A stretch of 63,245 nt of DNA, the filler included, from Candidatus Zapsychrus exili (lineage in GTDB: Bacteria; Omnitrophota; Gorgyraeia; Zapsychrales; Zapsychraceae): assembly GCA_030765585.1 (NCBI GenBank). It is 8 parts of 8 records of this genome, joined end to end, with 100 filler letters (N's around TTAATTAATTAA, not from the genome) between each part and the next. Parts side by side here need not be neighbours in the genome. Positions count along the whole stretch, not along the records: positions 46,242 to 53,405 come from JAVCCJ010000096.1; 7 more parts are not named here. One strand, given 5' to 3'. The notes beneath the pieces are model-generated. The model worked only from the letters and a program-made list of their open reading frames with translations, was not told the DNA's origin and searched no databases. Positions 2,662-60,631 of this stretch are shown here, one piece after another (positions within the stretch are counted from its first letter, which is position 1; every line of letters starts with the position of its first letter). The position numbers and the translations under genes are program-made.

Positions 2662-4408
2662 CTACTTTCTTGCCTAAACTTTTTGCTTTCAATATATCGC
2701 CAAGGGCCTTGTCATACTCTTTTTTTTGCAAATAAACCAATCCTCTATTATTGAAAGCCTGACTTAACTTTGGATCAAGTTCAACTGCACGACTAAAATC
2801 AGAAACTGCCTGATCATACTTACCCTGATAATAGAAAGACATTCCTCTGTTATTAAAAGTCTTTGCTGAATTGAAATTTAAATCTATCGCTTTATTAAAA
2901 TCTTCTATTGCAAGGCCATATTCCCCTCTTGATTGATATATCATTCCTCTATTATTTAATGCAATATCGTAATCTGGTTTTATTAACAATGCTTTGTTAT
3001 AGTCAGCTAATGCCTTATCAATCTTAGACATTTTATAATAAGCTTGAGCCCTTTTGCTAAACACTAAATAATTTTGTTTTTTATTCAACATTTCATCAAA
3101 ATCAGATAATAGCATCTCTTTCTCGGTCTTTTTGTAATAGACATAAGAACCAGCAAGCTCATTCCACGGAGTTTCATTCAATGGATTTATTTCTATCCAA
3201 TAATAAGAATACTTGATCCTTTCTTTCCAAACTTCATTACCTGTTCTTGTCATAAATACCAATAGAGCAACCATCATTATAATAATTACGTTCCAAGCCC
3301 TTTTATCAATTTTATTTTTAATATATATAAGAAAACTTGCTACTAAGAGAAAGAATCCTATTGAATTAAACAAAAACCAATGAGGCTCAATAACTGCTGT
3401 TCGGGTTGCAGCAGTATATGTAAAACTTGCAAAATAGACAGGAATAAGCCCTATAAGAAATAAAGCCAAATAAAATGACTTTTTGCTTCTTTTCCACCTG
3501 AAGAAAGCAAATAAAACAGAACCAATACTAGCTAAAAGCAATAAAATGTTTATCGGCCCTAAAGATGACTTTATTTCTTCGCACCACAGAAATAATATAT
3601 CTTTTGGAAAAATAAGCTTAGAAAAATACCATCCTAAAAGCTTAATAGATGTATACAAATAATTTTGGATTGGAATCCCTATGCGAAGAACATTATCAAT
3701 TTTTACAGCATCTGAAATATTAAAACGTATCAAAAGGTAAGCAGCAAAGGGAACTAAAAATGGAAGAACCGACAATAGGCTTTTCTTAAAACTAAATCGA
3801 TTAATAAAATACAATACAATCAATAGACACAAAGGAAAAATAAAATTTATTTCATGAGACAAAAGCGATAAAAAATAAAACAACAAACTTAAGAAAAGAA
3901 ACGTAATGTTTCGCTTCTCAATATATTTTAGAAAAGACAGCAGTCCTCCCTGCACCAATAAAATCGAAAAAGACAGATAGCTTGCTGTCTTATAATTTAT
4001 AAGAAAATTATTAATCGGATGAACAGCGTAAAAAATACTGGATAATAGCGCGAGTTCATAACTTCCAGTCAATTTATTTAGAATTACAAAAAAGAATAAA
4101 CAAAGGAAGGTAAATAAAACAAGATTGACAACATGATACGGATAAGGATTGTCCGCGAATAAAATCCGCTCTGACCTTAAAATTAAGAAACATACCGGAC
4201 GATAGAACTTCTTAAATCCTTTAAAGAATATATCCGATAACGATACGTCTGCAATGTTAGGATGATCAAGAAAATATTTATGATCGTCCATCATAAACTC
4301 ATTATTTAATGCATTGCTATAGCAAATAACTAACAGCAATATAAACACAACTATTACTAAAATAGAAAGTTTTTTTGTAAAGAGATCTTTTGTTCGAGAA
4401 ATCAACAT
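2615..4408 (-). CDS. TMTC-like GT-C glycosyltransferase with TPR repeats
   Basis: MDD motif, YRP, HPIN, TM helices, C-terminal TPRs. Confidence 0.82.
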   Translation of the reverse strand: MLISRTKDLFTKKLSILVIVVFILLLVICYSNALNNEFMMDDHKYFLDHPNIADVSLSDIFFKGFKKFYRPVCFLILRSERILFADNPYPYHVVNLVLFTFLCLFFFVILNKLTGSYELALLSSIFYAVHPINNFLINYKTASYLSFSILLVQGGLLSFLKYIEKRNITFLFLSLLFYFLSLLSHEINFIFPLCLLIVLYFINRFSFKKSLLSVLPFLVPFAAYLLIRFNISDAVKIDNVLRIGIPIQNYLYTSIKLLGWYFSKLIFPKDILFLWCEEIKSSLGPINILLLLASIGSVLFAFFRWKRSKKSFYLALFLIGLIPVYFASFTYTAATRTAVIEPHWFLFNSIGFFLLVASFLIYIKNKIDKRAWNVIIIMMVALLVFMTRTGNEVWKERIKYSYYWIEINPLNETPWNELAGSYVYYKKTEKEMLLSDFDEMLNKKQNYLVFSKRAQAYYKMSKIDKALADYNKALLIKPDYDIALNNRGMIYQSRGEYGLAIEDFNKAIDLNFNSAKTFNNRGMSFYYQGKYDQAVSDFSRAVELDPKLSQAFNNRGLVYLQKKEYDKALGDILKAKSLGKKVDEKIIKKLKNIAGVQ

Positions 4409-4420
4409 AAAAGCTGGTCT

Positions 4421-6766
4421 TTATTCATTTATTTTATTTCTTATGACGTCTATTACTTTATCGCTGACTGGATATTTTAAGGATTTTGCCTTAATTAAAT
4501 CATCATATGACTTTTTATATTTCTCTAGCGACCCATATGCCATAGCTCTGTTGTAATAGACTAAACCTATTTCAGGGTTAAGCTCAAGCGACTTATTAAA
4601 ATCCGAAATTGCCAAATCATATTTACGCAACTTCCTATAAATATTACCTCGATTATTATACGCCTGCATATGTTCTGGATAAATTTCTAACGCTCTGGTG
4701 TAATCTTTTATAGCTTTATCGTATTCTTTAAACGCGCTGTAAACATTCGCTCTATTATAATAAATGTCCACATGCTCTGGATTGATTCTTTCTGCAACAT
4801 TAAAATCTGATAAAGCCTTTTCGTAAAATCCTTTATGAAAATATAAACCACCTCTATTCATATACGCCTTGAAATGTTGATCATCTGCCATTATTACTTT
4901 TCCGTAAGACTCAATAGCGCGATCAAGCTCTCCTTTTTTCTCAAAGATTTCTCCGGTCAAATAATGCGCATTAACATAAAAAGGCTTAAGCATTAAAGCT
5001 CTATTTAAATCTATTAACGCTAAATCCTCTTTATTTCGCTTTCTATAAATAAGCGCTCTATTATGATATCCTTCAGCCAAAGAAGAATTCATAACAATTG
5101 CCTTGTTTATGTCTTCTAAAGCTTGCGGCAAATCATTTTTTAAAATATTTACAAAAGCTCTATTATTATATCCAGTATCTAATTCAGGATTAACTTCTAT
5201 TGCCTTTGTAAAATCCTCTATTGCTTTGTCATATTTGCCCTGTTTCGCATAAACATTACCCCTATTATTAACCGCTTCCTCTGACTTTCCTTCTATCTCT
5301 AAAGCATCATTGAAATCTGAAATCGCCAAATCATATTCTCCTGTAGCAGAATAAATAAGCCCCCTGTTATTTCTTCCCATAAAAGACTTTGGATTAAGCT
5401 CGAGCGCCTTATTACAATTGATAAGCGCTTGCTCGTGTTTACCCTCTTTAAATTGTGCTCCGCATAAATTTATATATGTTCTTGCTTTGTTAGGCGCTTT
5501 TTTAACAGCGTCCTCCCACAAGAGCACATCAGAGTCCCATACTTTATTTCTCTGATATGTAAGAGCTGATAATATCAAAACTATAGAAATAATGACAGCA
5601 AATGCTCTTTTATAATCCTTTGTGATTTTATAAATTAAGGCAGGTATAAGAATACAGAATCCTACAGAAGGCAAATAGAGCCTGTGCTCAAATATAACGT
5701 GACGAATTAAGATAAAACTCGATTCAACAGAAAGCGTTAAGAAAAACCAAAATATCGTAAATGAAAATAATCTATTCTTTCGATAAAGTTTTACAGCTAT
5801 AGATAGTAATAGCAAAAGGAATAAAAAGCTTAGCATTGTGCTTGTTTCAAACAAGCTTTTTGATGCTGGAAAATCATAATCCAAGGTTTGATTGACAGGT
5901 AAGAACAAAAGTCTTACATATGTAGTGATTACTCTAAACTGTGTAATAAAATATTGCCAAGTATTTATATAATCTCCATCATGCGACCCCGAAACAGACT
6001 CTGCAAAAAGTATATTCTTTGCCTTAAAATAAAATTGAGCTGGAACAACCAAAACAAAAAGGAAAATAAATAACAAAAGAACCGCTGTGACCTTTTTGTT
6101 ATTTTTTAAATTAAGCCCTTCTGGATAAATAAAGAAAAATTCAATAAGTAAGATAGAAAAAGGCAAAGTAAAAGAAATTTCTTTGGTAAACATCGAACAT
6201 AACGCAAAGACTGCGGACAAAAGAAACGGCACGACCAAACTCTTGCCCCTGTTTCCTTCTACCATTTTAAGCCTTGCCTTTATATAAAAACAAAGAGATG
6301 CCAAGTAGAACAATGTGGCAAGCGATGCAAAGCGCTGACAAACATAGGTTACTGCTTCTGTTTGAATCGGATGCGATACAAATAAAAGTGCCGCAAGAAA
6401 CGCAAATAATCCTTTTTTATCCCCGATGTCTTTAAAATCTAACTTTGGAGTTGATAAAATAAGCTTAGAAAACCAAAAGACAAATAAAGACGCTATTAAA
6501 TGTATTATTAAATTAAAGACATGGTATCCAAAAACATTTAATTTATTAAAATGATAATTCAACGCAAAGGAAAGAAAACCAATCACACGCGATGGCTTAC
6601 CCCATCTGCTGCTTACAACAGTAGAAAAGCTTCTTATATCAGGGTTCTTTATAATAAAACCGCGATCATCAAACTGAAAAGGATTATCAAATGTATTTGA
6701 ATAAATTAAAACACCTAACAAACAAATGATAATTATAGGAAGTATTTTATAGATTACATTTTTCAT
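4421..6766 (-). CDS. TMTC-like GT-C glycosyltransferase with long TPR array
   Basis: FDD motif, HPIQTEAVTYVCQR, EHRLYLPS, about 10 TPRs. Confidence 0.87.
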   Translation of the reverse strand: MKNVIYKILPIIIICLLGVLIYSNTFDNPFQFDDRGFIIKNPDIRSFSTVVSSRWGKPSRVIGFLSFALNYHFNKLNVFGYHVFNLIIHLIASLFVFWFSKLILSTPKLDFKDIGDKKGLFAFLAALLFVSHPIQTEAVTYVCQRFASLATLFYLASLCFYIKARLKMVEGNRGKSLVVPFLLSAVFALCSMFTKEISFTLPFSILLIEFFFIYPEGLNLKNNKKVTAVLLLFIFLFVLVVPAQFYFKAKNILFAESVSGSHDGDYINTWQYFITQFRVITTYVRLLFLPVNQTLDYDFPASKSLFETSTMLSFLFLLLLLSIAVKLYRKNRLFSFTIFWFFLTLSVESSFILIRHVIFEHRLYLPSVGFCILIPALIYKITKDYKRAFAVIISIVLILSALTYQRNKVWDSDVLLWEDAVKKAPNKARTYINLCGAQFKEGKHEQALINCNKALELNPKSFMGRNNRGLIYSATGEYDLAISDFNDALEIEGKSEEAVNNRGNVYAKQGKYDKAIEDFTKAIEVNPELDTGYNNRAFVNILKNDLPQALEDINKAIVMNSSLAEGYHNRALIYRKRNKEDLALIDLNRALMLKPFYVNAHYLTGEIFEKKGELDRAIESYGKVIMADDQHFKAYMNRGGLYFHKGFYEKALSDFNVAERINPEHVDIYYNRANVYSAFKEYDKAIKDYTRALEIYPEHMQAYNNRGNIYRKLRKYDLAISDFNKSLELNPEIGLVYYNRAMAYGSLEKYKKSYDDLIKAKSLKYPVSDKVIDVIRNKINE

Positions 6767-6827
6767 ATTAATTAATAAAATTAGCTACATCAAAATATGC
6801 AGGTAAGTGAAAAGGTTAAATTCTATA

Positions 6828-8210
6828 TTAGTGAAATATAGGGAAAAACAAAATTGCTAAATAAGCAATGACCATAGAAATGATACCGATAGTAGCTCCT
6901 ATCTTAAGCCAATAGCGGAATGTTACTTTGATATTTCTTTCTTTTTCCAACAACCCCAAAGCAACTATGTTGGCGGTCGAACCAATCATACTGATATTTC
7001 CTCCGTAACAAGCACCAAAAAGAAGTGCCCACCATAAAGGTTTTAGATTGATATGAAGCTCCGTCATGCTTTGAATAATAGGAACATAAGATGCAACGGT
7101 AACTACATTGTCCAGTCCACTTGATAAAAATCCACTTGAAAATAAAACCACGCCAGGTAAAACCTTAGGAGATGTCCCTACGACATCAATCAACTTAACG
7201 GCTAAGAAATCAGCTATACCTGATGCGCGAATTACACCAGCTTGAGCAAAAAGGAACATAAAAAATAATAGCGACGGCCATTCTACCTCATGCTCTATAT
7301 AATGTCTTGCCTTATCGTGTCTATATAGCATTACAATACCTGCAGAAATTACAGGTATCATTATCAAAAGAGTATTTTGTTCAAGACTTAAAAGCGACTC
7401 TATTCTTTTGTGAGCTGCCATAAGACAAATGGTGCCACCAAATATCAACAAACTTATTTTTGTTCTAAAATCTGGCGGAACAGAAATTAAATAGAGAAAG
7501 CTTTTGTCTTCCTGAAAAGGCTTTAATTTTTCGTTTAATTCTGAAATATATTTGCGATACCAAAAACATAAAATAAAAATAGCTACAAGCAACACCACCA
7601 TAGATAGAGGAAATGCATGTGTAATAAAATCTTCAAAAGAAAGCTTACTTCTTGCTGCTATTAATACTCCAACAGGATTTCCTAAAACTGTTGAAGCAGA
7701 TCCTATGTTGGTTGCAATAACAGAAGAAATGACAAACGGTAGAGGTTCTATTTCAAGAAAGTCACAAATATTTAAAATGACCATTGTCATAATTATGATA
7801 GAAGTCACCTCATCCATTAAACCAGAAAATAGAGCTGAACTTACCATAATTATAACAAACATCTTTTTTCCTGTTAAATTCTTTACTCTTAAAACAAGGG
7901 TTATAAGCCAAGTAAAGAAACCTGCTTCCTTCATCATACCAACAATAATCATCATTGAAACCAGAAAAAGAATAACATCTAAAGACGCATAGGTTATAAA
8001 AGACTCCATATCAACTGCGCCTAGCAAAAAGAACAAACCACTTCCAATAAAAACAAAACTAAGTCTAAAATCCCAGAAAAACAATGTTCCAGTAATAGAC
8101 ATAGAAAATATTCCTATAATCAAAGCTTGTTTTGGAGTAAATCCAATAGAAAATCCAAGAAAGCCAACACAAAGAGCAATACAGAATAAGAATATAAGTT
8201 TTAATTTCAT
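6828..8210 (-). CDS. ArsB/NhaD (CitMHS/SLC13-like) ion transporter
   Basis: TNIGSASTVLGNP and GGNISMIGSTANIV motifs; about 12 TM helices. Confidence 0.85.
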   Translation of the reverse strand: MKLKLIFLFCIALCVGFLGFSIGFTPKQALIIGIFSMSITGTLFFWDFRLSFVFIGSGLFFLLGAVDMESFITYASLDVILFLVSMMIIVGMMKEAGFFTWLITLVLRVKNLTGKKMFVIIMVSSALFSGLMDEVTSIIIMTMVILNICDFLEIEPLPFVISSVIATNIGSASTVLGNPVGVLIAARSKLSFEDFITHAFPLSMVVLLVAIFILCFWYRKYISELNEKLKPFQEDKSFLYLISVPPDFRTKISLLIFGGTICLMAAHKRIESLLSLEQNTLLIMIPVISAGIVMLYRHDKARHYIEHEVEWPSLLFFMFLFAQAGVIRASGIADFLAVKLIDVVGTSPKVLPGVVLFSSGFLSSGLDNVVTVASYVPIIQSMTELHINLKPLWWALLFGACYGGNISMIGSTANIVALGLLEKERNIKVTFRYWLKIGATIGIISMVIAYLAILFFPIFH

Positions 8211-16610: not shown

Positions 16611-16710
16611 NNNNNNNNNNNNNNNNNNNNNNNNNNNNNNNNNNNNNNNNNNNNTTAATTAATTAANNNNNNNNNNNNNNNNNNNNNNNNNNNNNNNNNN
16701 NNNNNNNNNN
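16611..16710. other. Artificial contig linker
   Basis: N44-TTAATTAATTAA-N44 (stops in six frames). Confidence 0.99.
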
Positions 16711-20416: not shown

Positions 20417-20516
20417 NNNNNNNNNNNNNNNNNNNNNNNNNNNNNNNNNNNNNNNNNNNNTTAATTAATTAANNNNNNNNNNNNNNNNNNNNNNNNNNNN
20501 NNNNNNNNNNNNNNNN
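20417..20516. other. Artificial contig linker
   Basis: N44-TTAATTAATTAA-N44. Confidence 0.99.
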
Positions 20517-29191: not shown

Positions 29192-29291
29192 NNNNNNNNN
29201 NNNNNNNNNNNNNNNNNNNNNNNNNNNNNNNNNNNTTAATTAATTAANNNNNNNNNNNNNNNNNNNNNNNNNNNNNNNNNNNNNNNNNNNN
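29192..29291. other. Artificial contig linker
   Basis: N44-TTAATTAATTAA-N44. Confidence 0.99.
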
Positions 29292-46141: not shown

Positions 46142-46241
46142 NNNNNNNNNNNNNNNNNNNNNNNNNNNNNNNNNNNNNNNNNNNNTTAATTAATTAANNN
46201 NNNNNNNNNNNNNNNNNNNNNNNNNNNNNNNNNNNNNNNNN
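46142..46241. other. Artificial contig linker
   Basis: N44-TTAATTAATTAA-N44. Confidence 0.99.
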
Positions 46242-46243
46242 AA

Positions 46244-47026
46244 ATGGATATGATTGATTTAGAAAACACTAAGTTTACTTTTTATGGTGATTTACTTGGA
46301 ACAGCAAAACTTTACAATATAAATGAACAATTGGCCAAGAGAAAATTGGACAATTTTTATGATATAGTTTTTAATAAATTTAAGACAATCGAAAGTGAAG
46401 AAGGAATTAAGGGATGGCTTTTTAGCGATTCTTTTTTTGTAACAGGGACAAAATTACGTAAAGCAATAGAAATTATAGGTGCAATATATTATAGTCTTTT
46501 TCATGAAGATATCTATTTAAGAGGAGCAATTGTCGGAGGGGAACTAGAGTTTGACCCTAAAATAGAATTAAGTAATTTAACAAAACAGCTCCCCAAAACC
46601 GATGTTTTATTTAGAGCTGTTACCTTGGAAAAGAGTGTAAAGGGGATTAGATTTGTAATAGAAAAGAATTTAGCAATAAGGATGCTTCCTAAAGAATGGC
46701 TGACAGATGACTTATACAAAAACAATGTAACGCTGGAAGGGTATGGAAAATATGATTTCAGAAGAAAAATTGTTTTATCTTCCGAATGGCACGCCTATGA
46801 GTACCTTTGGTCTTTCCATTTGAACCCTTCAGAGCTTTTTAGTGATGGAGTGGCGAAGTTTATACGTAGACTAAATATAAGTCCCTACGAGGTAATAGAA
46901 GAAAAGTTGTTACAAGTACCAAAGGATGTAAGGATTCATTTGGAAGAAACTAAAGGATTACTTAAAAGATCTTCGCTTAGATTTGTTATTACCGACAACG
47001 CTTTAAACTTATTCAACAGACAATAA
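46244..47026 (+). CDS. Class III nucleotidyl cyclase-like protein
   Basis: YGDLLGT (first Asp), FSDSF (second Asp), LRGAIVGG, VLFRAVTLEK, RFVI. Confidence 0.65.
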   Translation: MDMIDLENTKFTFYGDLLGTAKLYNINEQLAKRKLDNFYDIVFNKFKTIESEEGIKGWLFSDSFFVTGTKLRKAIEIIGAIYYSLFHEDIYLRGAIVGGELEFDPKIELSNLTKQLPKTDVLFRAVTLEKSVKGIRFVIEKNLAIRMLPKEWLTDDLYKNNVTLEGYGKYDFRRKIVLSSEWHAYEYLWSFHLNPSELFSDGVAKFIRRLNISPYEVIEEKLLQVPKDVRIHLEETKGLLKRSSLRFVITDNALNLFNRQ

Positions 47027-47063
47027 GTTATAATAGATATTATTATTAATTATAAGCTTAACG

Positions 47064-47086
47064 AACTCGTCCTTAAAGGCGAGCCA
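47064..47086 (+). repeat. att-like cassette boundary site 1
   Basis: AACTCGTCCTTAAAGGCGAGCCA followed by AACCCTCT..AGAGGG hairpin (47097-47130). Confidence 0.85.
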
Positions 47087-47170
47087 ATATGCGGGAAACC
47101 CTCTCGTCAAATTTTTTTGATGCAGAGGGCTTTTTACTTGTGATATAATATTTTTTAGGAGGGAAAGATA

Positions 47171-47491
47171 ATGAATATAGGAGTTGTCATTTCAAATAAT
47201 GATGTTGAAACCTGCTGGAACGCTCTTCGATATGCTAATTTTTGCTTATCCCAGAAAGATGAAGTTAAAGTTTTCTTTATGGGTAAAGGAGTAGAATACC
47301 AAAAGGTTAGCACGGAGAAGTTTAATACAGTTGAACAAGCAGAGAAACTGATGCAGGCTGGAGGCAAAATACATGCCTGTGGTAGTTGTATTAAATCAAG
47401 AGACCAAGATGGTTCTGAAATGTGCCCTATTTCTACAATGAAAGATATGTATGATATAGTGAAAGAAAGCGATAAGGTTGTTACCTTTTAA
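47171..47491 (+). CDS. DsrE-family protein
   Basis: WNALRYAN, VKVFFMGKGVE, ACGSCIKSR, CPISTM, SDKVVTF. Confidence 0.88.
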   Translation: MNIGVVISNNDVETCWNALRYANFCLSQKDEVKVFFMGKGVEYQKVSTEKFNTVEQAEKLMQAGGKIHACGSCIKSRDQDGSEMCPISTMKDMYDIVKESDKVVTF

Positions 47492-47547
47492 GGCTCAGTT
47501 GCAACAAGCCGCTTTTGTCCGTGAGCCGTTCTTTTAATTCTAAAGGT

Positions 47548-47595
47548 AAACTCATCCCTGAATGTAGCTTGATGAGTGAACGTATCGGGGAGCCA
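47548..47595 (+). repeat. att-like cassette boundary site 2 (24 nt longer)
   Basis: AAACTCATCC-N29-GGGGAGCCA followed by AAACCCCTTGTAACT..AGTTGCAAGGGGTTT hairpin (47602-47636). Confidence 0.7.
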
Positions 47596-47684
47596 TCGTC
47601 GAAACCCCTTGTAACTAAATAAGTTGCAAGGGGTTTTTGTTTGAGATATAATAAAAAATAAAGTTGGAAAGAGGGGGATAAGTT

Positions 47685-47957
47685 ATGAATTGGAAAATAT
47701 TTCTAGCAACATTTACGGCAGTATTCTTTGCAGAACTTGCAGATAAAACTCAATTCGTAGGGCTTGGAATGTCCGCCAAGTCAGGAAAACCATTAACGGT
47801 CTGGGTTGGTTCTATTTCAGCTTATATCATTGTTACTGCTGTTACAGTTCTAATCGGGGCAACTTTAGGGAAGTATATTAAGCCAGAATTGATAAAATAT
47901 TGTGGAGCATCATTATTTATAATAATGGGTATATTGATGTTTTTAGGAAAAGTTTAA
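47685..47957 (+). CDS. TMEM165/GDT1 (UPF0016) half-size cation transporter
   Basis: VFFAELADKTQF (E-phi-G/A-DKTQ motif), three TMs. Confidence 0.9.
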   Translation: MNWKIFLATFTAVFFAELADKTQFVGLGMSAKSGKPLTVWVGSISAYIIVTAVTVLIGATLGKYIKPELIKYCGASLFIIMGILMFLGKV

Positions 47958-48024
47958 CTAATCCCCAGCTCTTTATATATAATAATATTATATATTGTTA
48001 TTAATATTAATTATAAGCTCGACA

Positions 48025-48047
48025 AATTCGTCCTTAAAGGCGAGCCA
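48025..48047 (+). repeat. att-like cassette boundary site 3
   Basis: AATTCGTCCTTAAAGGCGAGCCA; upstream TATTAATTATAAGCT shared with site 1. Confidence 0.85.
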
Positions 48048-48121
48048 ATATTTGTAACTCGTTGTAATTTAATAAGTTACAACATAAAGAGTCTATCTAT
48101 TTTAGGTAGACTCTTTTTTTG

Positions 48122-48171
48122 TTGACCAAAAACTGGAGACGTGTTATATTATTATGCACATATGTGCATAA
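48122..48171 (+). promoter_or_regulatory. sigma70 promoter with palindromic operator
   Basis: TTGACC-17 bp-TATATT, then TTATGCAC-ATAT-GTGCATAA. Confidence 0.65.
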
Positions 48172-48186
48172 CTAAGGAATTGTTAG

Positions 48187-48480
48187 ATGAGACCCAAGAA
48201 AACACGATGGATTAAATGTAAGCCAGACGAAAGATGTTTCAGACCTAAATGCAAGCCTGTAAAGCAGCTTGAAGGCGTAACTGTATCTCTTGATGAATTT
48301 GAAGCTATCAGGCTGGCTGATTTAGAAGGACTTACGCAGGAACAGATTGCTAAAATGATGAAAGTGCATCGCTCTACTGTTGCAAGGATGCTTCAATCTG
48401 CACATCTAAAAGTTGCTGATGCATTGGTAAATATTAAGGCAATTAAAATTGAAGGTGGTTGTTGTAAGTCAGAGGAGTAA
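48187..48480 (+). CDS. DUF134 HTH DNA-binding protein
   Basis: MRPKKTR, DEFEAIRLADLEGLTQEQ, VHRSTVAR, IKIEGG. Confidence 0.9.
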   Translation: MRPKKTRWIKCKPDERCFRPKCKPVKQLEGVTVSLDEFEAIRLADLEGLTQEQIAKMMKVHRSTVARMLQSAHLKVADALVNIKAIKIEGGCCKSEE

Positions 48481-48486
48481 TTTATC

Positions 48487-49659
48487 ATGAAAAAACATCT
48501 CAAGTCATTTTTTATAATAGCTGGTTTTATTTTGTGTTACTTCCTGCCGCTAAAGCAAATAAACTTGTCTGGTCCGTTATTTGAATCTTTGGCGTTAGTC
48601 AAGTGGTATGCGAGAGAGCATGTCCTTTTATGCCTTGTTCCTGCGTTCTTTATCGCAGGAGCAATATCAATCTTTGTTAGCCAAGCATCTGTTGTTAAAT
48701 ACTTTGGTGCGAAAGCTAATAAGTTTTTAGCTTATAGTGTCGCTTCAATTTCTGGGACAATTCTTGCAGTATGCTCTTGCACAGTTTTGCCACTTTTTTC
48801 GGGTATATACAAAAGAGGGGCGGGAATAGGTCCTGCCACAGCATTTCTTTATTCAGGTCCTGCAATAAATGTTTTAGCAATAATAATGACAGCTCGTGTT
48901 CTTGGTTGGGAATTAGGAGTAGCAAGAGGAGTTGGAGCAATTGTTTTTAGCGTTATTATAGGTTTTTTAATGCATTTAATCTTTATCAAAGAAGAAAGGA
49001 ACAAGGATTCTGCCGCCGATTTAATTGTTGAAGAAGTTAAAGAAAACAGGTCTTTACTTCAAAATGGTTTATATTTCGCATCAATGGTAGCTTTTCTTGT
49101 TTTTGCAAATTGGGCTAAACCTCAAAGTGGAGAAATGGGTCTATGGAGTCTTATATTCAGCATGAAATGGTATCTATCAGGATTCTTGCTACTTAGTCTA
49201 AGTGCTATGCTGATGAAGTGGTTCAAAAAGGATGAGCTGAAGGGTTGGGTATCGGCTTCTATAGGGTTTGCTCACCAAATGCTACCCTTACTTCTAATCG
49301 GAGTCATAGTCGCTGGTGTTTTGTTAGGTCGCCCAGGAGAAGAAGGATTAATACCTTCATGGGTAATTGCAAAGTCTGTAGGCGGTAATTCTTTGTTGTC
49401 TAATTTCTTTGCTTCAATAGTCGGTGCTTTCATGTATTTTGCTACGCTTACAGAAGTCCCAATTTTACAGGGTCTCATAGGTTCTGGTATGGGAAAAGGT
49501 CCAGCATTGGCACTTTTATTAGCAGGACCAGCACTAAGTTTGCCCAACATGCTAGTTATTAGAGGTGTCCTGGGAACTCAAAAGACAGTAGTATATGTCA
49601 GCTTGGTAGTCATCATGGCTACTATAAGCGGTATTATTTTTGGAGTTATGGTTGGTTAA
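48487..49659 (+). CDS. ArsP/DUF318-family permease
   Basis: HVLLCLVPAFFIAGAI, AVCSCTVLPLF, FLYSGPAIN, YFATLTEVPI, LLAGPALSLP. Confidence 0.9.
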   Translation: MKKHLKSFFIIAGFILCYFLPLKQINLSGPLFESLALVKWYAREHVLLCLVPAFFIAGAISIFVSQASVVKYFGAKANKFLAYSVASISGTILAVCSCTVLPLFSGIYKRGAGIGPATAFLYSGPAINVLAIIMTARVLGWELGVARGVGAIVFSVIIGFLMHLIFIKEERNKDSAADLIVEEVKENRSLLQNGLYFASMVAFLVFANWAKPQSGEMGLWSLIFSMKWYLSGFLLLSLSAMLMKWFKKDELKGWVSASIGFAHQMLPLLLIGVIVAGVLLGRPGEEGLIPSWVIAKSVGGNSLLSNFFASIVGAFMYFATLTEVPILQGLIGSGMGKGPALALLLAGPALSLPNMLVIRGVLGTQKTVVYVSLVVIMATISGIIFGVMVG

Positions 49660-49674
49660 TGTTGGAGGTAAGGG

Positions 49675-49905
49675 ATGAAAATTGAGATTCTTGGAACGGG
49701 ATGTCCGAAATGTAAGCAATTGTATGAAAACACCAAATCAGCGGTTGAGCAAGCTGGCGTAGAAGCAGAAATAGTAAAGGTGGAGGATATATCTAAAATA
49801 ACGGATTATGCTGTTATGATGACCCCTGCTGTAGTTGTTGATGGTGTGGTTAAATCATCTGGTAAAGTATTATCGCCAGAAGAAATTAAAGCGTTTTTAC
49901 AATAA
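49675..49905 (+). CDS. Small redox-active disulfide protein (MTH895/ArsE-like thioredoxin)
   Basis: ILGTGCPKC, VMMTPAVVVDG. Confidence 0.92.
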   Translation: MKIEILGTGCPKCKQLYENTKSAVEQAGVEAEIVKVEDISKITDYAVMMTPAVVVDGVVKSSGKVLSPEEIKAFLQ

Positions 49906-49913
49906 AAATAGGA

Positions 49914-50336
49914 GTGTTAATTATGAAAGCGAAACTGACAGTTATAGCATTATACTTAGTTACATTGCTAAGTAGCCCTGCTACCTTTGCAGCGGAAGGC
50001 TCCAGCGTTGTTGCTACTTACTTTCATACAACATTTCGTTGTGTTTCTTGTCATAAAATTCAAAACTTCACTGAAGAAGCCTTGCGAAAAGGGTTCGCAA
50101 GGGAACTTGCCTCTGGAAGATTGAAGTATCGGGTTATAAATATAGAAGAACCAGGAAATGAGCATTATGTCCAAGATTATAGTTTATACACTAAATCAGT
50201 GGTTCTTTCTCTGCAAAAAGATGGTAAAGAAGTTGGGTTCAAGAACCTTGATAAAGTCTGGCAGCTTTTGAACGATAAGGATAAGTTTGTTTCGTATATT
50301 GAGAATGAAACAAAATCATTTTTAGATTCTAACTAA
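49914..50336 (+). CDS. ArsF-like exported thioredoxin-fold protein
   Basis: Signal peptide, YFHTTFRCVSC, N..EPGNEHY, KNLDKVW. Confidence 0.78.
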   Translation: MLIMKAKLTVIALYLVTLLSSPATFAAEGSSVVATYFHTTFRCVSCHKIQNFTEEALRKGFARELASGRLKYRVINIEEPGNEHYVQDYSLYTKSVVLSLQKDGKEVGFKNLDKVWQLLNDKDKFVSYIENETKSFLDSN

Positions 50337-50348
50337 CAGGAGTCTGTT

Positions 50349-51029
50349 ATGCTTGCATTAGTTTCGGCACTTTGGTTGGGGATATTAACATCTATCAGTC
50401 CATGTCCACTTGCATCAAATATAGCAGCTATTTCATTCCTTTCTAAAAAGATAAATCACCCTAAAGATGTAATGATGTCAGGGATTGCCTATACACTGGG
50501 CAGGGTCTTGACATATACAGTAATTGGTATTCTTATTATAACTTCTCTGGCAGGAGTGCCAGTCATAGCCAAGTTCCTTCAAAAATATATGAATATAATA
50601 CTTGGACCGCTACTTATAGTTGTAGGGTTGTTTCTCTTAGAGGTTTTTAAGTTTAGTTTTTCAGGACTTTCTTTATCACATGAGAAGCAGACTAAATTGG
50701 CCGATTCTGGTTTAAAAGGCGCTTTTGTTTTAGGTGTCGTTTTTGCTTTGTCATTCTGCCCAATTTCAGCTGGTCTTTTTTTTGGTAGTCTTATACCTTT
50801 GGCACTAAATAATAATTTTGGTGTTATTTTTCCAGTCATGTTTGGCATCGGAACAGGGTTACCCGTAATTTTATTTGCCCTGGCAGTAGCTTTTGGGTTT
50901 TTTGCTATATCACATCTATTTAAAAGACTGACAGAGATAGAAAAATATACAAGGAAAATTACAGGCGGTATTTTTGTTATAGTTGGAGCATATTTTATTT
51001 GGAACTATATTATTGTTCCCTTGCTATAA
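50349..51029 (+). CDS. ArsG-like / CcdA-DsbD-type membrane protein
   Basis: LGILTSISPCPLASNIAAI, YTLGR, ALSFCPISAGLFFG, GIGTGLP. Confidence 0.85.
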   Translation: MLALVSALWLGILTSISPCPLASNIAAISFLSKKINHPKDVMMSGIAYTLGRVLTYTVIGILIITSLAGVPVIAKFLQKYMNIILGPLLIVVGLFLLEVFKFSFSGLSLSHEKQTKLADSGLKGAFVLGVVFALSFCPISAGLFFGSLIPLALNNNFGVIFPVMFGIGTGLPVILFALAVAFGFFAISHLFKRLTEIEKYTRKITGGIFVIVGAYFIWNYIIVPLL

Positions 51030-51139
51030 TAGTAGAGTTCGGGATGAAATTAGAGATCTTGTAAACGATATGCCAGATAACTTGGTTAAGCAAGAATCAA
51101 CGACTCACTGAAGATTTGTTGAGTATTTTCCTCATTTAA

Positions 51140-51172
51140 CCAGTTGCGAAACTCATCCAATGCGGGGAGCCA
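51140..51172 (+). repeat. att-like cassette boundary site 4
   Basis: CCAGTTGCGAAACTCATCCAATGCGGGGAGCCA followed by AACCCTCTGT..GCAGAGGGTT hairpin (51183-51215). Confidence 0.85.
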
Positions 51173-51267
51173 TTGACTTCTTAACCCTCTGTGATAAAAT
51201 ATATTGCAGAGGGTTTTCGATTTCATTGTTACCGTTTTGAAATGGAAGTTGTATAGTTAAAAAACAA

Positions 51268-51744
51268 ATGAGCGTAATAGAAAAAGCTTTAGAACTTCTG
51301 AAATCAAGAGAATTTGTTGCAGTGGCTACGGCTGATAAAGGAGGAAAACCCAATTCTGCTCCTAAATTATTATTAAAAATAGATGGCGGAATAGTTTATT
51401 TTATCGATTACGGTATAGGTAGAACCGCTGACAATCTGAAAGTTAATCCAGAATTTTCTTTGTCATTTATTGATGTCAATTCTCTTTTTGGGTATAGGTT
51501 AAATGGCAAAGTGGAAATCATTGAAAAAGGCAAGATTTATGACGAGGGCCTAAAAAAGTTAAGGGGAAAAGAAACAAAGCTTACTGTAGAGCGTATTGTT
51601 GAAGGAGTGCACGTTGGTAAAGCACATAAAGACTTTGAACTGGGATTTTCTAATCGCTTGCTAATATATAAGGTTAAGATTGAAGAAGGTTGTGAGATAA
51701 GTCCTCGCGGTGTAATAAAACGGAAAAGCAGATTACGGATATAA
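51268..51744 (+). CDS. Pyridoxamine 5'-phosphate oxidase-like FMN-binding protein
   Basis: VATADKGGKPNSAPK, RTADNLKVNP, GYRLNG. Confidence 0.85.
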   Translation: MSVIEKALELLKSREFVAVATADKGGKPNSAPKLLLKIDGGIVYFIDYGIGRTADNLKVNPEFSLSFIDVNSLFGYRLNGKVEIIEKGKIYDEGLKKLRGKETKLTVERIVEGVHVGKAHKDFELGFSNRLLIYKVKIEEGCEISPRGVIKRKSRLRI

Positions 51745-51806
51745 CAAGACCTTTAGGTGATCATGGTAAGTTCTTGGTATTGTTTTTCGGTTTCTCCCAA
51801 ACACAG

Positions 51807-51839
51807 CCAGTTGCGAAACTCATCCTTAAAGGCGAGCCA
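51807..51839 (+). repeat. att-like cassette boundary site 5
   Basis: CCAGTTGCGAAACTCATCCTTAAAGGCGAGCCA followed by TAACTTATT..AATAAGTTA hairpin. Confidence 0.87.
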
Positions 51840-52009
51840 CTATTTCATAACTTATTTAATTACAATAAGTTATATGAAAGATTCTGTCTGTAATAAATCC
51901 CGAGCAAATTTTGCTTGGGATTTATTGTTTTAGGAAGCACAATACATTGGTTACAGTTCTCCGATTGGATTGAGAAACGGTCTGTAATGCTATATTGTAA
52001 AGGGGAAAA

Positions 52010-53152
52010 ATGAATAATAGTTCTTGGTTCTCTCAGATTTCATTTAAGCAACGGATTTGGTTGTTTGCGACTGTGGCAGGAATGCTTGCGATTGCAACTC
52101 TTGGGATTTTGCTGGGTTCATCAAGTAAGCCAAAGGAATCAATTGATTTCAACGTTAGTATGTCTATCCAAGACATTGCTCCCAAGCTTAGAGTTACAGG
52201 TAAAGGTCTTACTCGCGAACTTGAATTACCGATTGATATTTCCCAAAAAAAGCCTCTCAATTTATTAAAGGTAACGGACAAAGAGCTTCATCATGCCGCT
52301 GAACACATTCTTTCTCATCGTGATAGTATACTTAAATATTATATTTATGCGGCATTGGTATTATTTGGCCTCGTTTTTCTCACTAAACTAGGACGACCGG
52401 ATGGGTCCAACGTCAAACGCAGGCATAGCTGGTATCCTCGAGCACCCTATGTTGTTTCCCTTTTACTTTCTGTAATAGTAGCTGGATTTCTTCTTGGCAA
52501 GTCGCCCAATCCTATGGAGGGGACAGTCAAAGTATTTAAATCAATGGTAGGGCTTTACCCTGACCCAATGGTCAAAGCAATTGCTTTCAGTTTTTTCATT
52601 ACACTTGCTGTTATTGGAAATAAGATAATTTGTGGCTGGGCTTGTCCTTTTGGCGCTTTGCAAGAACTTATTTACAGCATTCCAATTTTGCAAAAAATCA
52701 AAAAAAAGAAACTTCTATTTATATTTACAAACACAATTCGCGTGTGTCTTTTTATTGCCATGCTTCTTTTTCTGTTCGGAATCATTGGGGGGCGCGAGGG
52801 ATTTGTAATTTACCACTATGCTAATCCCTTTAACTTATTTAATCTTGATTTCGAAACATTCAGTATTCTGTTGACAGTAATCATTGCCTTGTTGTTATCG
52901 TTCAGTATATACCGCCCATTTTGTCAGTTCATTTGTCCTTTTGGTCTTATTTCTTGGTTAGCTGAACGAGTCAGCATTTTTCGTGTTCAAATTGACAAAA
53001 AGAAATGCACCCAATGCGGTGCCTGCATAAGGGCATGTCCTTTGGAGTCTGCAGAAGGTCGGGTCGAAGGTAAGAGATTCCCGGCTGACTGCTTCAGTTG
53101 TGCGCGTTGCTTAAATGTTTGTCCAACTGATGCTATCAAGTATGGTAGGTGA
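52010..53152 (+). CDS. Membrane 4Fe-4S binding protein (NapH/NosR-like polyferredoxin)
   Basis: CGWACPFG, CQFICPFG, CTQCGACIRACP, CFSCARCLNVCP; TMs. Confidence 0.9.
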   Translation: MNNSSWFSQISFKQRIWLFATVAGMLAIATLGILLGSSSKPKESIDFNVSMSIQDIAPKLRVTGKGLTRELELPIDISQKKPLNLLKVTDKELHHAAEHILSHRDSILKYYIYAALVLFGLVFLTKLGRPDGSNVKRRHSWYPRAPYVVSLLLSVIVAGFLLGKSPNPMEGTVKVFKSMVGLYPDPMVKAIAFSFFITLAVIGNKIICGWACPFGALQELIYSIPILQKIKKKKLLFIFTNTIRVCLFIAMLLFLFGIIGGREGFVIYHYANPFNLFNLDFETFSILLTVIIALLLSFSIYRPFCQFICPFGLISWLAERVSIFRVQIDKKKCTQCGACIRACPLESAEGRVEGKRFPADCFSCARCLNVCPTDAIKYGR

Positions 53153-53247
53153 TAGAGAACTTGTAGCACCAGTTTAAATAAATGTGAGTTCTTTATATAA
53201 TTTATTAGCTTTTTCGGTAAGGTAATAACTCTTAAACTCTTCTAAAA

Positions 53248-53279
53248 AGTTGCGAAACTCGTAGTCTTGGGGCGAGCTA
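53248..53279 (+). repeat. att-like cassette boundary site 6 (degenerate)
   Basis: AGTTGCGAAACTCGTAGTCTTGGGGCGAGCTA followed by AACCTTATGTGAG..TTGCAGAGGGTT, like site 4. Confidence 0.78.
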
Positions 53280-53360
53280 CTAAAACATAACCTTATGTGA
53301 GTAAAATACTTGCAGAGGGTTTTGTTTTGTAGTAAATTATACATGGAAGGATAAATATAT

Positions 53361-53405
53361 ATGGTAAAAGAATTTGCTACTGCTATAAATTGCATAGATG
53401 GACGT
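53361..53405 (+). CDS. N-terminus of putative beta-carbonic-anhydrase-like protein (truncated)
   Basis: MVKEFATAINCIDGR (CxDxR motif); only 15 codons visible. Confidence 0.55.
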
Positions 53406-53505
53406 NNNNNNNNNNNNNNNNNNNNNNNNNNNNNNNNNNNNNNNNNNNNTTAATTAATTAANNNNNNNNNNNNNNNNNNNNNNNNNNNNNNNNNNNNNNN
53501 NNNNN
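53406..53505. other. Artificial contig linker
   Basis: N44-TTAATTAATTAA-N44. Confidence 0.99.
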
Positions 53506-57665: not shown

Positions 57666-57765
57666 NNNNNNNNNNNNNNNNNNNNNNNNNNNNNNNNNNN
57701 NNNNNNNNNTTAATTAATTAANNNNNNNNNNNNNNNNNNNNNNNNNNNNNNNNNNNNNNNNNNNN
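57666..57765. other. Artificial contig linker
   Basis: N44-TTAATTAATTAA-N44. Confidence 0.99.
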
Positions 57766-60531: not shown

Positions 60532-60631
60532 NNNNNNNNNNNNNNNNNNNNNNNNNNNNNNNNNNNNNNNNNNNNTTAATTAATTAANNNNNNNNNNNNN
60601 NNNNNNNNNNNNNNNNNNNNNNNNNNNNNNN
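60532..60631. other. Artificial contig linker
   Basis: N44-TTAATTAATTAA-N44. Confidence 0.99.

Follow-up and report, generated by a model that had tools for sequence, protein, structure and literature searches.

Six copies of a short repeat separate the genes of a single contig of Candidatus Zapsychrus exili (Omnitrophota, assembly GCA_030765585.1), and read in antisense they resemble the 3' ends of large serine recombinase (LSR) genes. The window, meaning the whole stretch of 63,245 nucleotides that was analysed, is made of eight contigs of a metagenome-assembled genome (MAG) joined by N44-TTAATTAATTAA-N44 linkers (16611-16710, 20417-20516, 29192-29291, 46142-46241, 53406-53505, 57666-57765 and 60532-60631), across which neighbourhood has no meaning. 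All six repeats, together with the gene units that we call cassettes, are confined to one contig of 7161 bp (window 46245-53405, G000:C66; Table 1). The + strand carries every called gene on this contig, and the repeats, all in one orientation, are each placed between gene units. On the + strand a repeat consists of a conserved block whose sequence is (CC)AGTTGCGAAACTCRTCC-N5-GGSGAGCCA or some variant, followed by a spacer of 5-12 nt, one or two hairpins with a T-run and usually a promoter-like site. The motif AAYTCRTCCNNNNNGGSGAGCCA has four matches in the window against 0.00 expected from 100 shuffles, and a looser motif has four forward matches in the 2.04-Mb MAG, all on the 7161-bp contig (control, 0).

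Translated on the minus strand from TGG, the reverse complement of the terminal CCA, the sites give short peptides, here called tails. Since the MAG shows no LSR of the matching clade, the tails in the window are orphans. The sequence-only reading that preceded this work had listed six such translations, and all six were reproduced exactly. Its claim that every boundary site encodes a WL(P/A)xxDEF tail ending in a stop describes the general pattern correctly, with the exception that site 6 is a decayed copy: TAG replaces the W codon, the W frame reads LAPRLRV.. after this stop, and the spacer is 1 nt longer, which puts the site out of frame with the others. At site 5, a stop codon lies immediately 5' of the W codon. 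Site 2 had been credited with 24 extra nucleotides in frame; its translation stands, but it contains no insert and represents a separate tail subfamily. This subfamily is also found in L317 and L198, with RTAHG(Q/K)K kept via synonymous third-position changes.

Table 1. Genes, tail sites and hairpins along the 7161-bp contig, in window coordinates.
Feature	Position	Strand	Details
First gene	46244..47026	+	260 aa, no Pfam family; overlaps the tail 1 stop at its 3' end
Site 1, orphan tail arm	47009..47086	-	25 codons + stop; peptide WLAFKDEFVKLIINNNIYYNLLSVE at 47012-47086, stop 47009-47011; core GGCGAGCCA at 47078-47086 on +
Imperfect hairpin with T-run after site 1	47093..47136	+	followed by TGTGATATAAT (-10-like); terminator scan partial, 47091-47107
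Cassette gene, DsrE/DsrF-like	47171..47491	+	106 aa; PF02635, E 2.4e-12
Site 2, orphan tail of distinct subfamily	47488..47595	-	35 codons + stop; peptide WLPDTFTHQATFRDEFTFRIKRTAHGQKRLVATEP, then stop; core GGGGAGCCA
Hairpin with T-run after site 2	47602..47636	+	terminator scan; overlapped by promoter-like TTGCAA-17-TATAAT
Cassette gene, GDT1/UPF0016 membrane protein	47685..47957	+	90 aa; PF01169, E 4.2e-21
Site 3, orphan tail	47988..48047	-	19 codons + stop; peptide WLAFKDEFVELIININNNI at 47991-48047; core GGCGAGCCA
Two hairpins after site 3	48054..48116	+	second, 48086-48116, with T-run; then TTGACC-17-TATATT
Five-gene cassette	48187..51029	+	DUF134 helix-turn-helix protein, ArsP-type permease, Thioredoxin_3, unknown 140-aa protein, DsbD_2
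Site 4, orphan tail	51086..51172	-	28 codons + stop; peptide WLPALDEFRNWLNEENTQQIFSESLILA at 51089-51172; core GGGGAGCCA
Hairpin with T-run after site 4	51183..51215	+
Cassette gene, PNPOx family	51268..51744	+	158 aa; Pfam
Site 5, orphan tail	51753..51839	-	28 codons + stop; peptide WLAFKDEFRNWLCLGETEKQYQELTMIT at 51756-51839; core GGCGAGCCA
Two hairpins after site 5	51846..51926	+	second, 51892-51926; 83% over 143 nt to L200
Cassette gene, membrane 4Fe-4S protein	52010..53152	+	380 aa; Pfam
Site 6, decayed tail	53174..53279	-	peptide ..SPQDYEFRNFLEEFKSYYLTEKANKLYKELTFI, then stop; core GGCGAGCTA
Hairpin with T-run after site 6, then start of Pro_CA_2-like gene	53282..53328	+	gene cut by contig end; its Pro_CA_2 identity is taken from homologues in L198/L314

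Recombinase ends and tRNA genes at the site

The link between tails and recombinases comes from relatives in which an LSR gene enters the site. In L192, a full-length LSR (Resolvase, Recombinase and Zn_ribbon_recom domains) runs in frame into a tail and ends ...SPFYMIAKCGQNENWLPRQDEFRNFCLSGKTEKVYQKLEEVIGVC, with an open frame of 524 codons and a called open reading frame (ORF) of 520 aa. LSR C-terminal fragments of different lineages (L255, L245, L278 and L219/L226) are each in frame with a different tail subfamily. An Omnitrophota genome (L315) carries the C-terminal part of an LSR with an in-frame tail, in a gene interrupted by the insertion sequence IS21. Together with the breaks of homology at the core described below, these in-frame fusions support the proposal made from the sequence alone that the site lies inside the recombinase 3' end, with one tail per cassette. 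An integrase at the element edge beside the site is likewise seen in relatives. Linkage of an LSR gene to the site can also be out of frame: the LSRs of L073 and L158, which belong to a second clade (P0001), enter the same kind of site in an 'NGSP' frame. We considered whether a programmed frameshift might fuse the L073 LSR with the tail and rejected the idea, as the A-run is no canonical slippery sequence and the clade uses the 'NGSP' frame at tRNAs. Tyrosine integrases reach the site as well, those of L183/L222 in the W frame and those of L209/L271 in another.

Most LSRs of the L192 clade read into an antisense tRNA rather than into a DEF-type tail. The ending WLPxxDSN, which the sequence-only reading had given for such enzymes, is indeed the antisense of a tRNA 3' end (CCA, acceptor and T-arm) entered by LSR genes. 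Among Omnitrophota LSR loci, 14 of 30 from the L192 clade abut tRNA-Asn, tRNA-His, tRNA-Ser or tRNA-Ala, and in those 14 the tRNA CCA, taken as its reverse complement, forms the conserved W codon of the LSR; for the P0001 clade, 13 of 30 abut tRNA-Asn, tRNA-Gln or tRNA-Glu. The commonest target of these LSRs is tRNA-Asn, which in these organisms ends ...GGGGAGCCA, the same sequence as the site core, and this 9-nt core is all that the repeats and tRNA-Asn have in common. Directly 3' of such tRNAs, the reverse complement of the last LSR codons (SPF..AKG) is a hairpin with a T-run, and the hairpins after orphan sites resemble this coding stretch. Because of this likeness and the shared core, we interpret the module in the window as the last ~45 codons of a clade LSR gene with the tRNA-like core mid-way. 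The hairpin inside the LSR coding end looks like a replacement terminator for the tRNA. In LSR genes downstream of tRNA-Asn (L319, L321, L326, L331 and L337), and also in L245 and L278, the last ~15 codons (..SPF..AKG..) encode an opposite-strand hairpin right after the CCA.

Regular expressions were used to classify the 120 database proteins most closely related to the L192 LSR. Forty-five of them stop within four residues after the W, 44 read into an antisense tRNA, nine have a related ..FRT.. tail like the orphans of the Candidate Phyla Radiation (CPR) type, three end at ..SPF and 19 fall elsewhere. The tail is therefore dispensable for many members of the clade, given the first two of these groups.

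Variation among the tails carries a coding signature. For the 42 unique sequences of the largest subfamily (WLPRQDEFRNFC...), the entropies at the three codon positions are 0.49/0.42/0.75. The ratio of nonsynonymous to synonymous polymorphism (pN/pS) over codons 12-31 is 0.42 in the W frame (n=36), against 0.86 and 0.88 in the other frames of the same strand and 0.77, 0.49 and 1.23 in the opposite-strand frames. The antisense frame with the value of 0.49 shares its wobble positions with the W frame and holds 34 stops in 684 codons, compared with 9 in 720 for the W frame. In the second subfamily (n=18), pN/pS is 0.62 in the W frame versus 0.81-1.18 in the others, the wobble-sharing antisense frame standing at 0.81. 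Tail length peaks at 27-32 codons (88 of 169 tails). By these patterns, the antisense reading of the sites is meaningful as evolutionary history. In addition, 42 of 137 tails have a pair of non-polar residues at their very end, versus 16% expected from composition; the excess is modest and, together with the selection on the tails, speaks for some function. A short subfamily of 16-aa tails (WLAILDEFRNWALTAA and similar), found in the GC-rich metagenome contigs L183, L222, L228, L231, L246, L264 and L273, often ends ..TAA, ..SAA or ..KGA, endings that we take to recall ssrA-like tags. In L222/L183, this short tail is in frame with a tyrosine integrase.

Distribution of the module and breaks of homology at the core

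A profile built from 17 tails matches 86 of 401 Omnitrophota genomes at E<=0.01, with one to seven matches per genome. A scan of one genome per species returned at least 120 stretches, about 26 of which were true homologues as judged by eye from the extended motif, an AT-rich non-coding context and a hairpin after the site; about 90 were chance matches within GC-rich genes. The source records of the true homologues are labelled Omnitrophota, Saccharibacteria, Paceibacteria, Thermodesulfovibrionia and Acidobacteriota, and the module is thus also present in CPR and other phyla. With a more specific pattern, at least 117 metagenome stretches were retrieved, from which 115 sites were analysed. Four of the six non-own matches in a scan of relatives were due to chance, three of them within genes resembling short-chain dehydrogenases/reductases, and all six motif matches in viral contigs lay in GC-rich coding DNA, none being homologous.

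Arrays of sites occur elsewhere. L208 holds six sites in 11 kb, L189, L198, L313 and L317 hold three or four each, and several other loci have two. Cassette genes lie almost always on the strand opposite the tails, and their products include GGDEF-HD proteins, FMN reductase, MatE, CrcB/DUF190, a ZIP transporter, a serpin, methyltransferases and a zeta toxin. The contig G304:C17 shows the order tRNA-Asn, LSR, ~4.5 kb of genes on the LSR strand and three single-gene cassettes, each with a terminal tail. The five-gene block of the window (48187-51029) recurs at 68-70% nt identity in two metagenome contigs (L180:62-1368 and L239:10440-11948), and the L180 copy of the DUF134/ArsP-permease/thioredoxin/DsbD operon is upstream of a tail site.

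Recombinant junctions fall at the site, both as breaks of homology at the core and as alternative joints in public contigs. Across 169 unique sites, 559 of 1065 in-register high-scoring segment pairs (HSPs) end 0-4 nt past the CCA. Sites 1 and 3 of the window match a site in L198/L190 at 96% identity over 49 nt and 91% over 76 nt, respectively, and both matches end at the CCA, the former stopping exactly at 47086 and the latter at 48047. When L276 is compared with L198, the left 120 nt up to the CCA are 100% identical and the next 60 nt only 58%, and the site is followed by a Fer4 gene in L276 and by crcB in L198. In L276, the gene that follows a different site shares 91% nt identity with the 380-aa 4Fe-4S gene of the window. 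Site 6 shows the converse when compared with L121: its right side is 90% and 87% identical, its left side 62% and 48%, and the region from its core onward has 84-90% identity to L121.

In the public-run contigs, a joint of 51175->47601, that is from 3 nt past the site 4 core to 6 nt past the site 2 core, appears in two runs, which come from two studies. A contig of run X3 is without the PNPOx cassette (joint 51214->52000), and contigs of runs X1 and X2 diverge immediately after 48047 into L198-type sequence. The public contigs show alternative cassette orders, not necessarily circles. Each of the 17 public runs contains at most 0.20 of the sampled words, and uncovered bins are not evidence of absence. 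As homology breaks at the core, the exchange point would lie within the last codons of the LSR clade. LSR attachment sites are 40-50 bp long, with imperfect dyad symmetry around a central dinucleotide. By eye, no clear dyad surrounds the core; the nearby hairpin is palindromic, yet the breaks map to the core and not to the hairpin centre.

Proposed mobile cassettes and rival explanations

The reading that we favour, and to which we would give about an even chance, sees the contig as a series of LSR-less cassettes that were mobilised in trans, with recombination at an LSR site within the recombinase's own 3' end. Each boundary site would be one copy of the module that serves a clade of LSRs as attachment site, and in this clade the site would overlap the 3' end of the LSR gene itself. 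This module would combine an arm of ~80-100 nt, representing in antisense the last 27-32 codons of the recombinase and its stop, with the core GGSGAGCCA, which supplies the W-L-P/A codons and is identical to the tRNA-Asn 3' end, and with a short spacer and a hairpin with T-run resembling the last ~15 LSR codons before the W (..SPF..AKG..). The hairpin probably terminates transcription of the + strand. If strand exchange occurs at the core or within a few bases of it, the contig resolves into five LSR-less cassettes, each composed of hairpin, promoter, gene(s), tail arm and core, in a layout akin to an integron array or to a tRNA island built by tandem accretion. An LSR would catalyse this exchange, and the cassettes could be inserted and shuffled in trans and move individually. 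The tails in the window are currently untranslated, with stops 0-35 codons upstream of the W and no LSR on the contig. Their coding signature may be kept because any tail becomes the recombinase C-terminus once it lies beside an LSR gene or in a circular element.

A number of observations weigh against mobilisation in trans. The pile-up of HSP ends at the CCA is partly the end of the conserved block there, and the joints in public contigs were called at >=90% likeness with 36-nt sides and possibly come from related organisms. Recombination between like sites is assumed; to our knowledge, canonical LSRs act only on the pair of attP and attB. The hairpin/promoter module ahead of Fer4 in the window is not the one found ahead of it in L276, and the left ends of cassettes are therefore not fixed units. 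Other integrases abut the site in other frames, so that it is a shared hot spot and not the private 3' end of one enzyme. In-frame fusions of LSR and tail are rare, with about six among the 115 metagenome sites listed. LSRs ending in a WLPxxDEF-type tail do exist, namely the full-length L192 enzyme, the fragments and L315. A DEF-type tail was found in 0/30 and 0/30 Omnitrophota LSR loci (two samples), the strict WL[PA]xxDEF motif in 0/120 of the closest L192 relatives, and no LSR-length protein with a tail in a profile search of 1.84 billion representative proteins. Within the source genome, an L192-type query finds no clade LSR in the MAG (96% complete, 129 contigs), no tRNA-Asn is among its 35 assembled tRNA genes, no integrase is encoded on the 7161-bp contig and ARAGORN reports 0 tRNAs in the window. 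The array thus stands without a visible enzyme or primary target. Because the MAG is in 129 contigs, a missing LSR, tRNA-Asn or integron integrase does not show absence from the genome.

Accretion and decay offer a possible, though clearly less probable, account, in which once-complete LSR elements were stacked at a tRNA, their recombinases were later deleted to a 3' stub and the cassettes were never self-mobile. The order in G304:C17, with tRNA-Asn and an LSR element ahead of older cassettes, and the decayed sites (site 6 of the window, L233, L238 and L189) favour this view over ours, and it would also fit that most clade LSRs sit beside tRNAs, that orphan hairpins resemble the last LSR codons and that one LSR is interrupted by IS21. 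Tycheposon islands follow the same logic with partial tRNAs (Hackl et al., bioRxiv 10.1101/2020.12.28.424599). Against accretion, the stubs are uniformly short (spacer and hairpin) rather than ragged pseudogene pieces, and no partial LSR ORF was seen between sites in the arrays inspected. Cassettes may consist of one gene and measure as little as 0.5 kb, with the gene on the strand opposite the tail, and one and the same tail can precede different right-hand cassettes, homology ending abruptly at the core; cassette order also varies between metagenomes. The uniform stubs, the cassettes of one gene and the abrupt reassortment at the core point towards cassette mobility; still, the data do not separate trans-mobilised cassettes cleanly from accretion and decay.

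A swap of tails could also serve as control, the state of the C-terminus setting recombinase stability or the direction of recombination. We regard this as unlikely. It would agree with the purifying selection on tails in the W frame, with the existence of in-frame fusions, with the excess of non-polar final residues (42 of 137 versus 16% expected) and with the GC-rich subfamily ending ..TAA or ..SAA, and there is a precedent in gp33 of mycobacteriophage BPs, where an attP within an ORF alters a C-terminal degradation tag (PMC4557955). On the other side, 45 of the 120 L192 relatives stop within four residues after the W and at least 44 have tails dictated by a tRNA, which implies that the enzyme works with an arbitrary tail or none, at least when integrated. 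A wider proposal, improbable to a similar degree, combines both ideas: an LSR-based, integron-like capture platform in Omnitrophota, CPR and others, in which every mobile cassette would end in a translatable C-terminal module for the recombinase, so that the tail would report the neighbour and switch stability or directionality. The enzyme would then carry its own tail when circular, and otherwise the tail of another cassette or an antisense tRNA, beside or in place of a directionality factor.

That the tails are displaced 3' ends of a chromosomal target gene, duplicated at each island integration, seems very unlikely to us. Duplication of a target-gene 3' end by an island is the pattern of icd/e14 and of rlmH/SCCmec, the staphylococcal cassette chromosome mec, and both the coding-type conservation and the integrases of two families adjoining the site would suit it. 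No common gene body emerges, however, from the 115 metagenome sites listed, the 86 genomes or the profile hits. Orphans make up nearly all copies of the tail. No ORF of at least 75 codons enters 91 of those 115 sites in any frame, and the remaining entering ORFs are integrases or have no Pfam family. Open frames in the 86 Omnitrophota genomes with tails are nearly all shorter than 130 aa, and 58 of the 60 hits in the search of 1.84 billion proteins are ORFs of 33-157 aa, with the tail terminal in almost all. The two long hits (1285 and 3715 aa) were discarded, as only ~13 profile positions matched, in repeated stretches. Orphan short frames without a common body mean that the tails are owned by no chromosomal target gene. 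A 126-aa antisense ORF in L053 was rejected as a target gene (no Pfam family; weak PHROG terminase-small match, E 0.02), and long W-frame ORFs in L231 (382 aa), L174, L204, L277, L274 and L314 (a 250-aa frame) were treated by eye as spurious on the grounds that they have no Pfam family and a low-complexity or antisense-looking sequence.

We attach an equally small probability to the repeats being a transcriptional or RNA element (a 3' untranslated region, a terminator module or a sequence like the repetitive extragenic palindromes) without a role in recombination. Such an element would explain the strong hairpin with T-run after almost every site and the placement of sites between co-directional genes, but not the variation with period 3, the restriction of the repeats to a single contig of the genome or the integrase genes that enter the site. 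Rfam at E<=5 gave no match on the contig, and none to a tRNA model, except for a weak NsiR1-like one. A conserved stem, CTCRTCC/GGSGAG, was dismissed because its only variable pair is Watson-Crick in 22 of 169 sites, and so was a tRNA or tRNA-like gene: ARAGORN finds none in the window, threading by hand onto T-arm and acceptor fails, and Rfam has no match. The NsiR1-like match (51875-51928; 23.6 bits, gathering score 39, E 0.27) coincides with the second of the two hairpins that follow site 5 and is probably just this hairpin. Least probable of all, with hardly any weight, is a classical integron with its array of attC cassettes. What resembles one is the common orientation of the single-gene cassettes, with imperfect palindromes between them. 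An attC is marked by R''/L''-L'/R' boxes, RYYYAAC / GTTRRRY for R''/R', and a folded bottom strand. At the site ends the R''/R' boxes were not seen by eye, no IntI was found (the best TIGR02249 match in the MAG scores 92 bits against a cut-off of 265), and the conserved arm is coding-like, which would be unexpected for attC.

Known systems and further observations

The array shares with integrons mostly single-gene cassettes in one orientation, a recombination site at the 3' end and reordering of cassettes. Unlike integrons, it is associated with serine recombinases while IntI is missing, its cassettes carry promoter-like sites and terminator-like hairpins of their own, and a translated arm replaces the folded attC. 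Like SCCmec, inserted by CcrAB at the rlmH 3' end, it involves LSRs, tandem elements without a recombinase and direct repeats that contain a gene 3' end; in SCC this is the end of the target gene, whereas here there is no target body and the end is the recombinase's own.

Tycheposons use tyrosine or large serine integrases that target the 3' part of a tRNA, and successive integrations push older elements outward, leaving repeated att copies and degenerate cargo without integrase (10.1101/2020.12.28.424599). Site-specific integrases, which here are seen in relatives, targeting of tRNA 3' ends, repeated att copies and integrase-less cargo are common to both. The repeat here is instead the recombinase's own 3' coding end under coding-type selection rather than a partial tRNA, a cassette can be as small as a single gene, and the contig carries no tRNA. 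A full tRNA at the end with partial tRNA repeats inside, as defines a tycheposon, is not found in the window; G304:C17 starts at tRNA-Asn. The logic of the array is closest to tycheposon-type tRNA islands and SCCmec-type composite islands. In mycobacteriophage BPs, attP lies inside the repressor ORF, and integration by a tyrosine integrase truncates the protein and removes a degradation tag (PMC4557955). An attP within an ORF whose integration alters the protein C-terminus is the shared feature; the difference is that the gene here is the recombinase itself, whose end is swapped for another tail or an antisense tRNA. No prior description of the arrangement was found in a limited literature search.

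If the favoured reading of LSR-less cassettes mobilised in trans is true, these sites would constitute a widespread route by which small accessory-gene cassettes are collected and shuffled in little-studied phyla, through a mechanism distinct from integrons and recognisable by a simple sequence signature. It would account for assembly breaks at these loci, including the short contigs and the tRNA-Asn and recombinase missing from the MAG. The recombination site and the recombinase's own coding end would constrain each other, and the loci would offer natural sets of LSRs with matched sites, raising the question of whether an exchangeable C-terminal tail tunes a serine integrase.

Several minor observations complete the picture. 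Fragments of unrelated serine recombinases lie at MAG contig ends (G000:C110, C78, C38, C37, C105 and C124; L131-L136), and the copy on C110 ends ..NCEDLVEIDYP, without a W-type tail. Several tRNA-Ser genes and one tRNA-Thr are located at MAG contig ends as well. At L315, the IS21 pair (IstA with rve/Mu-transposase_C_2, and IstB) occupies positions 3125-5458, with a tRNA-Pro and a tyrosine-integrase fragment 5 kb upstream. In L314, a tail site (6103-6201) is convergent with an LSR gene of the other strand (6514-8181), whose 3' end it faces, an arrangement from which it follows that an LSR may also occupy the cassette strand. In L054 (3920-4023), the tail arm is split by a ~50-nt insertion with a hairpin of its own, and the distal part still reads RNWLMTEKIERLYKELT.

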